Assembly: GCA_964016885.1 (NCBI GenBank)
Contig: OZ024758.1
Coordinates: 27,094,001 to 27,158,000, forward strand
DNA from: Eledone cirrhosa
Taxonomy: Eukaryota
Reading direction: 5' to 3'
DNA: 64,000 nt
The position numbers and the translations under genes were made by a program. Of this stretch, positions 3,659 through 63,960 are shown piece by piece. Every line of letters begins with the position of its first letter. Position 1 is the first letter of the stretch. The notes beneath the pieces are model-generated. The model was not told the DNA's origin, made no database searches, and saw only the letters and a list, made by a program, of their open reading frames with translations.

Positions 3659-3809
3659 TAGAAGTGGTTACACAACAGTTATTTCACCATACCGAGAACA
3701 ATTGTTCTCGGTATGGTGAACTAATTGTTGTGTAACCACTTCTACCTAACTCGTCCTATGGACTGAGTGCTCTACCACTACGGATATTACCTTCCAGTGT
3801 ACTACCACT
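3659..3809 (+). mobile_element. Penelope-like pLTR fragment: fold-back palindrome plus tail
   Basis: Near-perfect palindrome 3659-3744 centred on GAACAATTGTTC. The arms carry a GAAAT-AACT-GTT-like ribozyme 3' half and the tail has GAGTGCT (3765). Flanked by (TA)n. Confidence 0.55.
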
Positions 3810-3933
3810 ATATATATATATATATATATATATATATATATATAATGGAAAAATTTGAACAGGGACAAAACAGAGAGGCAGTACAACGAATGTTTATTAA
3901 TTTCACGCTCTGGAGAGTGGGGTGTTGGTGGGG

Positions 3934-3968
3934 GACGACGTTTCGGGCATAAGCCCTTCCTCAGGTGA
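3934..3968 (-). ncRNA. Minimal hammerhead ribozyme core (weak stem I)
   Basis: Minus strand reads CTGAGGA-A-GGGC-TTAT-GCCC-GAAAC-GTC with AATAAA downstream. The island lies between (TA)n tracts. Confidence 0.6.
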
Positions 3969-4307
3969 GAAGTGTGTGGGAACAGAGTTCTATATATATA
4001 TATATATGTATATACATGTATATACATATACATATATATATATATATATATATATATATATATACATGTATATACATATACATATATATATATATATATA
4101 TATATATATATAAAAGATGTAAAATAAGAAAATTAAAAAAAAAATTTTTTTAAATTAACTTACTAAAATTATATATATATATATATATGTGTGTGAGTGT
4201 GTGTGTAGTATGTATACGTATATATATATATATATGTATGTATATAATATATGTATTTATATATGTATGTAGTATATATTATATCTATATATATATATAT
4301 ATATATA

Positions 4308-5235
4308 GGGGAATTCTTTGATGCCACAGAACTCCACGAAGAAATGGCGACCATCAGCCACATAGATATAACGGAGGAAGATGTAATATCAGCCATAGAA
4401 GAAATGAAAGCAAACTCAGCTGATGGGCCTGATAGATTCCCAGCAATCCTAAAACATGCAAGCGTGCCTTAGCAAGACCACTGAAGATCCTCTTCCGAAG
4501 TTCTCTGAGCTAAAAGCAGGTGTAATATGCCCTATCCATAAGGGAGGATGCAGAGGCTAAAAATTACAGGCCAGTCTCCCTCACATATCAGTAAGTTCAT
4601 GGAGCAAATCATCAGAAAGAAACTGATCACGTTCCTCGAGGAAAATGATCGCTTAACTAACACTCAGCATGGCTTTCGCCAGGGAAGAAGCTGCCTTACA
4701 CAGCTTTTACAACACCACCACTGGGCCCTGAAACAACTGCTGGGCAGCTCAAATGTGGACGTGATATATCTTGACTTTACGAAGGCCTTTGACAAAGTCG
4801 ACTGTCGAATCATATGTTACAAACTACACAGATTCAACATAACTGGAAAAGTAGGTGAGTGGCTGCATGACTTCTTAAAACACAGAAGCCACTATTGCAA
4901 CCAACGGGGCCCTCTCAAAGGAAACAGCAATAACAAGCGGGGAGCCCCAGGGCATGGTCTTAGGACCACTACTGTTTGTGGTGGCTCTTTCAGACATGCA
5001 CAGGCAGTCAAGAACCCAACTGATGCTACTCTTTTACAAGATCTGGATGCCATGTAGAAATGGGCTGAGGACAACAACATACAACTTAATGTTGGAAAAT
5101 TTCAAACCCTACGATATCAACCTGCTAACGCAAGGAAAGTGCAACAAAGCTACACCAGACCAGAAGGGATCAAAATCCCCTTGTCGAAATCGATACAAGA
5201 CCTGGGTATAGACATGAGCGACGATTTATGTATCT
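4308..5235 (+). pseudogene. Decayed CR1/L2-type LINE reverse transcriptase fragment
   Basis: Frameshifted motifs ADGPD, NYRPVSL, QHGFRQGRSCLTQLL, DVIYLDFTKAFDKV, PQGMVLGPLLF, LQDLDAM and QDLGI. Confidence 0.9.
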
Positions 5236-6058
5236 GCTATGTTAGAGTGAAACTTCAATTTCTAATTTTGTTTATATATATATATATATATATAAATATA
5301 AATATATATATATATAAATATATAAATATATATATATTATATATATATATATAATATTTAACTCTGTCCACTCACCACCAACAGAATCTTACACCAAAGA
5401 TGATTGAATTGTGTCAGGTTGAATGCTTTTCATATTATTGCAGCATGGTTAACTACACAAAATGAAACGTTCTATCCAGTGGTGAACCACTAACTTCAAT
5501 CAATGTGTGTGTGTGTGTGTGTTTATTGATGTTAGAAGTCCTGTTGTTATTGTTACACTCTTCCAAAATCTTTTTTAATGTAGTATAAGTTGTTGTTGTT
5601 CTTGTTGCCACTATTGTTTTCTCCTTGGTAACGTTATTACTTTTTTTGTATTTTTCAAAATCATGTCCTCTTTGAACTGAAAGGTAAATTTAAATATTTC
5701 AGAGAATGGGCGAACATTCCCTAGGAGTTTAGAGTTGAAAATCTATAAGATCCTTTACCAACTCCCTGACATATCTTTCGTGCTGTGTTTACTAAATATG
5801 CTTTTCTGACGATCATTAATTGTGTTTTCGTCCAAAACACAATATTTTTCTGACAGCCCCCAAACAAATTAAGCTACTGTCCTTAAGAATTTTTTCAGAA
5901 ATTTCATTGAAATGACAAATAATCAATATATTCCTCATTTGTAGTTTCTACAGCATTTCATCAGTTCAACGGAGATCATTTGTTTCGGTAGATAAAACGA
6001 TAAAGGTATTCGAAAGAAAAGAAAATGTTGAAACTGAATATAAGGGTAAGCTGACACT

Positions 6059-6487
6059 CGTATGTGTAAGCTGAAAAGTTCAAAGGCTGACTATGAAGGA
6101 CTGACGCTAGAGCTGTGAAATCTTGCATGTATTAATTTCAACACTTATTAATAAATGTATTGTTTCTTTCTAGGGATTATGTTGAAAAATAAACCTCATT
6201 CGGTCATTCCGTGAGAGAATCTTGGTCAGCCTATAAACTTTTCAGCCAATACTCGTAGGTGCGTGTGTGTATATATGTAGGGGAGGCTGAAAAGTGTGTA
6301 TATATGTAGGGTAGGCTGAAAAGTTCATAGGCTGACTATTAAGGGGTGATGCTAGAGCTGTGAAATCTCGCATGTATTAATTTCAACTTTTGTCTCTTTC
6401 TAGGGACTATGTTGAAAAATAAACCTAATTTAGTCATTCCGTGAGAGTATCTTGGTCAGCCTATTAACTTTTCAGTCGATCCTCGTA
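6059..6487. mobile_element. Two tandem mariner-like MITE copies
   Basis: TIRs GGCTGAAAAGTTCATAGGCTGAC / GTCAGCCTATRAACTTTTCAGYC..CTCGTA with TA ends. Same family as 55378-55480 and 60657-61058. Confidence 0.7.
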
Positions 6488-61058: not shown

Positions 61059-61254
61059 TTCATCAGTCATTACACGTGCACGTTAATATTTTTGAATATT
61101 TTCATCATAAATTCAACATTTCAGTATTATTCTAAAATACCTTTAAACTCAAAATACTTTGATAATTATAAATATGTTCTTCATAAATTCAACGTAACTT
61201 TTCAGTATTATTTAAAAACAATTTTAAACTCAAAATACTTTGATAATTATAAAT

Positions 61255-61443
61255 AATTGTTTCTATTTTAGGCACAAGGCCAGCAATTACCCAGTACATT
61301 ACATGTACTTTATTTTATCGACCCCGTAAGGATGAAAGGCAAAGTTAACCTCGGCGGGATTTGAACTCAGACTGTAAAGAGACGTAACTATGCTAGAAAG
61401 CATGGCGTCCAATCCTCTACCGATACTGCCAATTTACCGCCCT
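61255..61443 (-). mobile_element. MetaSINE-like element
   Basis: Matches the family consensus. A further fragment lies at 61545-61601. Confidence 0.85.
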
Positions 61444-61689
61444 GCATAATTATAAATAATTATGATAATTATAAATAATGATAATGATAATTATAAATAA
61501 TGATAATGATAATTATAAATAATGAATGCAGATATTGTAATAACTGTTTCTACTTTTGGCACAAGGCCAGCAATTACCCAGTTCATTACTGGTACTTTAT
61601 TGTAATAACATTCACATATATTACAGACTTCAGATTTGAAACCTCGTGGGCAGGCATTGTTGGAAGCATTGTTTGGCAACAGTGGTAGT

Positions 61690-61975
61690 ATGGTAAGGGT
61701 GTAGACCCCTTGGGTCACGAAAGACCATGGGATTCACACCTAGAAAGTTCCCCGGGCAAAGTTGTTTCTGGAAGACCAGCAGTCGCCCATGCATGCCGGT
61801 TTCCCCTCTCCACGTTACTGATGTTGTCCAAAGGAAAGGCAATGGTCGATTCAGCTTGGCACCAGTGACGTCGCAACTCATTTCTACAGCTGAGTAAACT
61901 GGAGCAACATGAAATAAAGTGTCTTGCTTAAGGACACAACACATCACACGGAATCGAATTCACAGCTTCGCAATT
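61690..61975 (-). mobile_element. tRNA-derived SINE with a CORE-like box
   Basis: Minus strand reads GTGTTGTGTCCTTAAGCAAGACACTTTATTTCATGTTGCTCCAG. The head is shared with the 12727 family but the 3' part differs. Confidence 0.7.
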
Positions 61976-63616
61976 GCATGTCCATGCATTGCATTTCCAG
62001 ACACAATCAAATTATATACCAGTAAACCATGCGTCTTGTATAGAAGATGCTTTTTTAAATTAATTTCTACTGGAGTCATAAGCGTATTGCTCCTATCATT
62101 TTAGGGGTGCAGACATTCATAATTTTCTGACAAAAATGACTAAATGTTCCAACAGCTTTTTTTTTGGTGGAGCAGCTCCTCCCCCCTATCAATACGCCAC
62201 TCTCTAATTGTTCTTGTTGCATGTCGACAGAAATTTCCTTTCATAGGATAACTCCTCCCACACTCATACATATGTATATATATCCAGAGAGAAATCAAAA
62301 ACCGATGAGGCTACGCATAATTCTCACATCTACAATTATTATGCAAGAGAGTGTGCAACTTAGTGTAATCATTAGAATATTAATGAGTGTCTCACTGGGA
62401 ATACAACTATTACAAATAGTCTTTCTCTTTCGAATAAAATTATTGCCTCAAAAAACGCAAAGGTTTTAAATATATTCAGATAGCAGTTGTACACTAATTG
62501 CAACTAGTAGAGTAATAAAAGAATACAGAATAAAGAATAAAAGAATGAAATAATAAAAGAATAAAGAATTTAAAAAATGAAAGAATAAAAAATGAAAGAA
62601 TAATTTATGTACGAACATCATCTTTCAGACACAGGCTCAGTATTTCTTAAATGCAGAAATGAATAAAGCTACAAAAATAAAGAGTTAACCAGAAAGTTCT
62701 TTATTTCAAGATATGAAGAAAAAGGTAGTGGTAAAATAGCTCAGTGGTCGAGAAAAATTAATCGCCTAATCTGTAGTTCTTTTACAAAGAAGAAGAAGAA
62801 GAAGAAGAAAGCATCTAATACTAAAAATTATAGAGTAAAAATAATGTCTGTAGTATATACTGATTACAACATATGAGATGGGAAAATACAAATAAAATAG
62901 TTTAGAAAGAATGGAAGTTATAACTCAAAAGAAAATGGCGAATGAGGAGGAAGAGAAGATGAAACACGTTATACAAGTGTGTGAAAGACGTTGATGAAGA
63001 ACTGGGACTAAAGTGAAGCATTAACATTTGCTTGAATAACCAGTTTTATCACATCTCTCGTTAGATCGACAATATCTAACGATAAAATCAACAGCCATTA
63101 CTATAGCAATTCCAATAGCAACAAACATGTCTTCATAAAAAAGATATATGTAGCATAACGTTTCACCTTACAATTGCATCTAAAAAGACGTCAATAAATC
63201 AGGAAATATATGAGCACGGGCGGGAAAAAATAAAAAAAAGGACACTTCTGTATACGTTCTTGTATCTTTCTATCTAGTGAATGTGTTAAAGATAGGTTTG
63301 TATGAATGTATGTATGCACCAATGTGTTCAGATGATAGCTAAGGTTATGAGTATAAGCCTATTACAAATTATAAATATACTCGGCTGAATCCACATGTCA
63401 AGTCAGAATGATAAATGTGTATACCCACAACCTACTACCTGAGATTAATGAGTTACGAATATTTCTTATACTATAAATACTAGCCTTGAATTGCATCTGG
63501 TATAAATTCATCAGAGTAAAGTGCCTGTCATATTTCCAGACACAATCAAATCATATACCTTCTGTTTTGAAGGCCAAATGAAAGTATATATATATATATA
63601 TATATATATATATATA

Positions 63617-63960
63617 TAATATAATAAAAAATCAAAAGATGGTTAAAAGAGTTCCATGTATTTTGTGACTTCGAAGTTTCTGTTTGGTTACTTCATCTGT
63701 GATGCGCTTCTGTATATGTACGGCAACTCTCAAAATGTAGATGCAGTCATCATACACACAAACACACACATATATACTATATATATATATAGAGTGTCCA
63801 CCCAAAATGTATACACATATTTATTAGAATACTTTTAAAACTCTTTTAACCATTTTTTGATTTTATATTATTTATACTCCAGTCCTATAAACTGTTGAGT
63901 GCTACTTATCCGATATATGCATTGCTTTATTGTGCTACAATAAAACTCACCTCCTACACA
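63617..63960 (+). mobile_element. PLE family D fragment (inverted end plus tail)
   Basis: Homologous to 16551-16592 and 16850-16970. The tail has GAGTGCT at 63898 and (TA)n lies on both sides. Confidence 0.7.

Follow-up and report, generated by a model that had tools for sequence, protein, structure and literature searches.

A fixed TA-like boundary and a covarying stem-loop in head-to-head, tail-bearing islands of probable Penelope-like origin in Eledone cirrhosa

How do short islands combining an inverted repeat with a one-sided tail arise within (TA)n tracts? The question is raised by a 64,000-nucleotide (nt) stretch of the Eledone cirrhosa genome (GenBank assembly GCA_964016885.1, contig OZ024758.1, positions 27,094,001 to 27,158,000, forward strand; hereafter the window, whose coordinates are used throughout and also designate islands and families), which is AT-rich animal DNA with abundant (TA)n tracts. 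A first-pass annotation had described there a stereotyped order of (TA)n, an inverted partial pseudo-long terminal repeat (pLTR), a forward pLTR with a tail and again (TA)n, and had ascribed it to Penelope elements. Since inverted pLTRs, one-sided tails and (TA)n targeting are all published, this geometry is in itself already known: canonical insertions of endonuclease-bearing (EN+) Penelope-like elements (PLEs) have an inverted 5'-truncated copy, a tail of 30-40 bp at one end and (TA)n targets (PMC8557442), palindromes at PLE inverted junctions and solo pLTRs have been reported (PMC3846280), and opposite-strand pairs of minimal hammerhead ribozymes lying 100-700 bp apart in Schistosoma mansoni come from truncated PLEs (PMC4209133). 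The origin of the inverted pLTRs and one-sided tails is what PMC8557442 names as an open problem. We find that the islands of the window, which almost certainly derive from PLEs, have one arm ending at a boundary fixed within each family, that in most families a bulged stem-loop lies beside this boundary, and that the islands are likely to be heavily 5'-truncated PLE ends inserted into (TA)n, each via two priming events on opposite target strands.

Self-BLAST and per-island alignment recovered inverted arms in all 14 islands listed in the first-pass annotation, with identities from 22/23 to 210/211 and, in the eight islands tested, arm scores of 41-87 against shuffle maxima of 18-24 (30 shuffles each). 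One arm lies 0-2 nt from (TA)n, the exception being 34491, in which 12 nt of (TC)n intervene; the opposite arm is followed by a tail of 53-137 nt (first estimated at about 50-130 nt). Six of the 14 are near-perfect palindromes with loops of 0, 0, 1, 1, 3 and 4 nt, and the other eight have spacers of 16-185 nt between the arms. Simple repeats flank nearly all islands (the tail of 7388 abuts another element), and a target-site duplication is unreadable inside a microsatellite. Among 44 TA-bounded islands scanned, the geometry is seen in 14 and weakly in one (47419), and 29 have no inverted arms; two of these 29 (7860 and 21020) are head-to-head joins with non-overlapping arms. A count by eye of the PLE-derived islands gives about 17 head-to-head against about 18 in a single orientation. 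The head-to-head form is hence common, at about half of the PLE-derived islands, and not clearly the dominant product that had been supposed; the reads show that its frequency depends on the family. The description of the inverted piece as the partial one also has to be turned round: among islands with an assignable spacer, five clear cases (45612, 21020, 7860, 16999, 19963) and two probable ones (20647, 20272) have a boundary arm that exceeds the tail arm in length, against one in which the tail arm exceeds the boundary arm.

The PLE origin is supported by ribozymes and by a coding remnant. A custom descriptor located type I hammerheads at eight sites in five families of the window, and many short islands end before the hammerhead position. 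In 16553..16971 (plus strand), a 330-nt palindrome with zero loop and its centre at 16717/16718, followed by a 91-nt tail, type I hammerhead motifs in the two arms (16650 minus, 16785 plus) face outward, which puts the arms head-to-head, with an element 3' end on each outer side. An Rfam scan of the whole window placed no hammerhead among the best 150 of 343 matches, which were hairpin and simple-repeat noise below gathering scores, and the Rfam models missed the hammerheads in two local scans of separately tested sites as well. The remnant, at 15136-15754, is a GIY-YIG domain (Pfam 22.7 bits against a curated cut-off of 22.6; tblastn E 2e-22 to a protein whose relative, P0002, has reverse transcriptase (RT) and EN motifs), and the translation of 15168-15890 carries a CX4CXXC linker before the C-terminal GIY-YIG, in line with the CX2-5CXXC linker and GIY-YIG with CCHH by which Neptune and Nematis are recognized. 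It belongs to the broken 3' end of a Neptune-type PLE open reading frame (ORF), followed by a pLTR piece (15136..15888, plus strand) that self-BLAST relates via 19662 to the 16999 island. From these protein features, which do not separate Neptune from Nematis, the 16999 family is a Neptune-type PLE. The remnant is linked to this family only; all 30 stop-free frames of at least 200 amino acids in the window are simple or tandem repeats, with no ORF for the other families. The islands resemble canonical EN+ PLEs in their head-to-head copy, one-end tail, junction palindromes, solo pLTRs, hammerheads and (TA)n preference, and differ from those described in PMC8557442 and PMC3846280 in their longer tails and in that almost all copies are without ORF sequence.

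The boundary is identical within about 2 nt across independent copies of seven families. The pairs first noticed to share it (16553/63619, 24798/46127 and 21773/45612) do so within this tolerance, and 20621/16507, 28517/4113, 9895/21734 and 21020/7860 are further such pairs. In the 16999 family, loose ends in (TA)n fall at 17055 in 77 contigs of run X1, which may be the source of the assembly, and in 2450 raw reads of run X21, a different sample. Moreover, the TA register runs on through the opening 2-5 nt of the tail in all nine families with an indel-free anchor (3661, 16553, 19963, 20272, 20647, 21773, 24798, 28517 and 16999), against a TA frequency of 0.10; in 63619, 45612, 45818, 7388 and 34491, misanchored by indels, the boundary was read by eye, and the 17427 family needs a 2-nt shift. 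Two origins had been offered for this boundary. Annealing to the (TA)n target fits best; nicking of a target-like site in the element itself finds less support, since the boundary arms examined all join host simple repeats and never another element end. Under the latter explanation, which we consider improbable, the endonuclease cuts the boundary in the element's own DNA, be it a tandem precursor or the second strand, and trims one arm, and the stem-loop described below could be a single-stranded-DNA signal. It draws on cleavage at an ATT of the element's own ORF-pLTR junction DNA and on a cited tail requirement for recognition by the D. virilis EN (both PMC11167929), on the attribution of the tail to EN-mediated resolution (PMC8557442) and on the tail-only island 10161, which begins at the boundary; set against these, the window shows no element end inserted at another's boundary without a simple-repeat tract, and two RT start sites already account for the tail in vitro.

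Beside the boundary lies a feature that the first-pass annotation had overlooked. It consists of RCTC, a variable stem, a loop of about 3-60 nt, the complementary stem, a 2-nt bulge, GAGY and RCT, begins 6-9 nt inside the boundary in families without mutual BLAST similarity, and is present in 13 families of the window. A simple pattern for it gave 12 matches in the 41.8 kb masked window, compared with 0.55 +/- 0.69 in 60 shuffles. With one copy from each of ten families, 27 of 30 positions in the variable stem are paired versus 17.1 after permutation (20000 permutations, p about 1e-4), and four other bulge sizes are at chance in the same test. A 12-row MAFFT alignment has 97.5% of cells paired with 12 double-sided changes, a level reached in 0 of 500 shuffles, and slid controls on it are 19-56% paired. 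A covariance model (CM) recovered the 12 training rows, four family relatives and a partial match in the 20272 family, and found three held-out islands, 22635 (E 0.03), 14549 (E 0.045) and 24541 (E 0.9), besides four unrelated weak matches at E of at least 1. The held-out islands show the expected stems, two of them with a compensated GCTC/GAGC pair. No prior description was found in literature titles and abstracts (Arkhipova 2006, Evgen'ev and Arkhipova 2005, the Repbase notes and the supplements of PMC11167929 being outside that scope), a word search for 'stem-loop' in the main text of PMC8557442 returned zero occurrences, and the accounts of EN+ PLEs in PMC8557442 and PMC3846280 mention neither this structure nor TA microhomology at the boundary. 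The bulged stem-loop is thus apparently a new, undescribed feature.

As a control, the motif-plus-(TA)n pattern had no matches in prokaryote genomes, and among 28 metagenome loci retrieved with a looser pattern none matched three PLE proteins by tblastn, and none contained a hammerhead or a genuinely inverted arm. The best CM scores among them, for L013/L016 and L004 (E 0.002 and 0.009), are uninformative because the loci were selected by pattern. Positions 326-400 of L013 and 5000-5075 of L016 are identical, have TA-rich tracts on either side and lack a hammerhead or ORF in their vicinity; this stretch could derive from a host animal's PLE stump or match by chance.

The same structure can be recognized by eye in four of the six Hydra consensi in File S7 of PMC8557442 (coral, sea cucumber and copepod), at the pLTR/tail junction. 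Hydra-2_Amil, Hydra-2_Ajap and Hydra-1_Crog have it at their 3' ends, beyond the hammerhead, and in all three a TA-rich stretch precedes it by 7-8 nt; in Hydra-1_Ajap it stands at the very 5' start, the 3' end being TA-rich by eye. An unsystematic word search for the 3' half of the motif at Naiad or Chlamys ends gave no convincing match among the places listed from the same supplement. The Hydra clade has (TA)n targets and a canonical hammerhead and occurs in Octopus as Hydra-1_Obim (PMC8557442). Both traits are found in the motif families here, together with the RCTC-stem-bulge-GAGY-RCT motif; the difference is that the window has no Hydra ORF, the protein of this clade being recognized by RWK and DKT signatures and a lack of CCHH. 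On this sequence likeness, the conserved tail structure is likely to be a signature of the Hydra clade, and most families other than 16999 likely belong to that clade. Non-LTR retrozymes are likewise non-coding, hammerhead-bearing PLE derivatives, as described in bioRxiv 10.64898/2026.07.22.740005, but they form direct tandem arrays, whereas the islands are inverted single insertions; self-comparison of the window revealed no tandem array of hammerhead units, by which such retrozymes are recognized.

The inner junctions behave differently from the boundary. In four copies of the 21773 family the inverted arms end within about 6 nt of one another, and the forward piece starts again at a different point in each, in two copies within the tail. 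Likewise, in reads of the 16553 family all 12 joints listed start at 16714-16722 and lead to points from 16753 to 16940, some in 16753-16876 and others in 16930-16940. No RNA data set was listed as containing the 16553 island. Because the inner junctions vary between copies, the hairpin is rebuilt at each insertion, and the islands are not the mobile hairpins implied by the earlier term MITE-like (MITE, miniature inverted-repeat transposable element). That they are MITEs of a DNA transposon, or artefacts of assembly or fold-back, is extremely improbable. Such a reading is prompted by their short, ORF-less form, inverted repeats and TA flanks, and Tc1/mariner elements duplicate TA. The inverted repeat does not extend to both termini, the tail being outside one arm, which together with the varying junctions differs from the signature of a DNA transposon with terminal inverted repeats (TIRs), and hammerheads and a PLE endonuclease remnant are present. 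As for artefacts, the arms differ by substitutions in 13 of the 14 islands, and another sample's raw reads contain strand-switch joints at 16716-16940, 16718-16872, 17145-17145 and 17091-17302, though no listed contig spans the whole stretch compared with reads. By the crude measure of summed contig depth in run X1, coverage drops at the 16553 boundary, from 2.28M to 0.87M, and, equally crudely, depth in the 16999 family rises from tail to arm by only about 25% (X1) to 39% (X21). Two arguments were dropped: that the lower depth upstream of 16713 proves a fixed 5' end, since the stretch compared there is the inverted arm, and that the 21773-family inner end is a hammerhead cleavage site, since no stem I lies beside the core in copy 8757 by eye.

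We hold with moderate confidence that dual priming, a twin-priming-like form of target-primed reverse transcription, explains the islands. The endonuclease would nick both strands of the (TA)n target. One nick would prime cDNA at the distal end of the tail, and the ...TA-3' end at the other would pair with a UA-rich site of 2-5 nt at the pLTR/tail boundary and prime a second cDNA. The two cDNAs would then be joined at their 3' ends via microhomology or a self-complementary end, yielding head-to-head arms and a one-sided tail, and the stem-loop 6-9 nt inside the boundary is a predicted RT-binding element that would set the register. A first cDNA halting inside the tail would give non-overlapping arms (7860, 21020), an unextended second cDNA would leave the tail alone (10161), and two cDNAs both reaching a preferred self-complementary 5' point would form a perfect palindrome (16553). 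In L1 twin priming, similarly, the second nick anneals internally and a head-to-head inversion is joined by microhomology; L1, however, primes at a variable internal site and leaves pieces with little overlap, whereas each family of islands keeps to one site and complete overlap of the arms is frequent. Biochemically, the Poseidon PAc protein, predicted to be a dimer, cuts and extends both strands in vitro with two RT start sites that bracket the tail (PMC11167929, which leaves the later insertion steps unvalidated), and its AT-rich target adds to the likeness; its start sites lie at an AC-rich stem-loop 111-118 nt into the ORF without target homology, whereas the proximal site of the islands shows TA microhomology over 2-5 nt.

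A rival explanation holds that a tail-primed cDNA folds at a short palindrome, copies itself to the TA-like boundary and joins the target by TA microhomology, with asymmetry arising from later deletion. The six near-perfect palindromes, the preference of the 16553 family for the inner end 16714-16722, the clustered inner ends of the four 21773-family inverted arms and the self-priming from palindromes at inverted junctions proposed in PMC3846280 all speak for it. We nevertheless consider it unlikely, for in 7860, 21020 and the read joints into 16930-16940 the tail-bearing piece is shorter than the tail; the arm is then absent from the tail-bearing strand and cannot be produced by simple copying of that strand, so that each non-overlapping copy would need an extra deletion, hitting the tail arm preferentially (seven against one). 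The zero-loop centres of 3661 and 16553 would, moreover, better fit two self-complementary cDNA ends than an intramolecular turn.

Host repair offers a further route, in which a break in a self-complementary TA tract would let the end fold back and use adjacent DNA as template, producing inverted duplicates with no reverse transcription. A second class of inverted duplicates, centred on (TA)n itself (10242-10307, 29852-29919 and 48170-48970), suits it. In the listed islands, however, the centre of symmetry falls within the element instead of on TA, and in unrelated families one arm ends at a site peculiar to the family, with constant spacing to an RNA-like structure; this makes the route very improbable for them. 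Within that second class, 10242-10307 and 29852-29919 are short and apparently tail-to-tail, the former being a 20-nt copy of the end of the 10161 tail and the latter about 25-28 nt of a boundary end, and at 48170-48970 a unit of 80-90 nt recurs six times in both orientations with (TA)n between copies. These two short duplicates, 10242-10307 and 29852-29919, possibly record fold-back repair at TA tracts, a process distinct from that of the listed islands.

Several points weigh against dual priming guided by a stem-loop. PAc initiates without homology to the cut DNA, unlike the proposed annealing step (PMC11167929), and asymmetric arms could stem from later deletion of a perfect palindrome, fold-back with deletion being able to yield an identical range of products. 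The fixed TA-like boundary of the 16999 and 28517 families comes with no stem-loop motif, hence the geometry can arise in its absence; in the 14499 island the right arm ends at a later TA-like site, and 45818 has the longer tail arm. As to the data themselves, 10 of the 20 automated boundary rows were anchored at less than 15/16, and several of the 20 were indel-shifted and read by eye; the motif and its bulge size were picked after viewing the data, with five offsets tested; the 12-row alignment includes related copies; and the read joints and loose ends listed are the best-supported ones, with 90 more joints and 834 more loose ends beyond the listing. For the clade, tblastn tied no Hydra ORF to any motif family in the window, so that the assignment depends on the by-eye match, one of whose four instances, Hydra-1_Crog, carries a stem-1 mismatch, and the motif is not visible in two of the six consensi, Hydra-1_Obim and Hydra-1_Amil, the latter being 5'-incomplete and perhaps ending before the tail.

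With these reservations, we tentatively put forward a broader possibility: Hydra PLEs may carry a stem-loop conserved from coral to octopus that docks a telomerase-like RT 6-9 nt from a UA-rich site, where the second (TA)n nick anneals much as a telomere end sits on the telomerase template, such that tail and inverted pLTR would be the footprint of programmed twin priming and the tail of about 100 nt a sufficient cis signal for (TA)n insertion. With a conserved, covarying cis element in a constant position relative to the junction, the problem of PLE inversion and tail formation acquires a defined target for mutagenesis and a prediction that applies at genome scale, and the junction pattern makes the formation of both directly testable. 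The stem-loop also provides a tag by which PLE stumps that lack an ORF can be assigned, pieces that TIR-based pipelines could mistake for MITEs, and it may account for many short hairpins in (TA)n-rich genomes.

The remaining palindromic islands vary greatly in size. The perfect, zero-loop palindrome 3661-3742 in 3661..3808 (plus) is followed by a 66-nt tail with the motif at 3749-3771; the motif of 16553 is at 16888-16915. The largest, 24798..25357 (plus), has a 423-nt palindrome with a 1-nt loop and a 137-nt tail with the long-loop form of the motif, and 25005-25160 within it folds into a core resembling a hammerhead, in which stem I has 9 bp and stem II is long; the stem II region of the hammerhead-like motif at 25010-25160, about 110 nt, is far beyond the usual length. 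In 28517..28733 (plus) a 95-nt palindrome precedes a 122-nt tail, with the boundary as in 4113-4169 and no motif found. The island 34491..34614 (minus) has a 53-nt tail, 28-nt arms with a 3-nt loop and the motif at 34498-34536, its boundary arm being followed by (TC)n and then (AT)n. Finally, 21773..21964 (plus) has arms at 21775-21826 and 21831-21882 with a 4-nt loop, a tail of about 80 nt and the motif at 21893-21919. In the other plus-strand copies of this family, the inverted boundary arm is joined straight to the last part of the tail (7860..7949), meets the tail at the motif (21020..21160), or is long and followed by a 23-nt forward arm and a tail of about 80 nt with the motif (45612..45771).

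Among the islands with spacers, 20647..21013 (plus) has arms at 20648-20755 and 20821-20928, an 85-nt tail and the motif at 20938-20965 with one stem-1 mismatch, and the 16553-family copy 63619..63959 (plus) has 33-nt arms parted by other sequence and a TA tract, a tail of about 90 nt and the motif at 63876-63903. On the minus strand, 19963..20257 has a 98-nt tail, arms at 20061-20133 and 20185-20257, the motif at 20022-20051 and a hammerhead (20167 plus) within the boundary arm; its tail-only relative 10161..10258 (plus) has the motif at 10172-10199. Also in this orientation are 20272..20621, with a 97-nt tail, arms identical at 79/79 positions, the compensatory GCTC/GAGC variant of the motif and the boundary as in 16444-16507, and the 24798-family copy 45818..46128, with a 112-nt tail, a long tail arm (to 46065) and a 46-nt boundary arm. 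In the Neptune-type island 16999..17370 (plus), a short minus-strand arm and a 60-nt tail on the left side form 16999-17135, with no RCTC/GAGY motif, and the longer plus-strand arm, with a hammerhead at 17213, stops at the boundary. The head-to-head pair 14499..14715 (minus) is centred on a (TA)8 tract, and its left arm runs into a tail with the held-out CM match at 14549-14597.

The island 7388..7553 (minus) has arms at 7459-7497 and 7514-7552, a 71-nt tail on the left and the motif at 7432-7453. Together with a TA tract it lies between 7300-7387 and 7597-7817, which are 99% identical pieces of a hammerhead-bearing family arranged 3' to 3', the left one beginning inside the hammerhead core; this arrangement is unexplained by the head-to-head model.

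Single-orientation copies include 17427..17701 (minus), with a hammerhead at 17618, the boundary and a tail with the motif at 17489-17511, whose relatives 9709-9895 and 21657-21734 both stop at the boundary. The latter is a permuted piece, with the tail first and pre-boundary sequence after it, which suggests an internally deleted tandem template. On the plus strand, 22588..22718 carries the held-out motif at 22635-22670 (GCTC/GAGC-ACT type) and 24189..24646 the weak held-out match at 24541-24581 (GCTC/GAGC). More minimal hammerhead cores occur in single-orientation TA-bounded islands at 30175-30199 (plus) and about 3920-3965 (minus).

Elsewhere in the window, 4308-5230 and 14757-15135 are, by eye, degenerate RT fragments resembling those of long interspersed elements. 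Tandem arrays occupy 35008-38215 (68/55 nt units), 39320-45161 (42 nt), 56864-57445 (107 nt) and 57908-58299 (78 nt). The 78-nt unit of the last corresponds to the 5' part of the common short interspersed element (SINE) of the window, which we take to resemble an octopus SINE.

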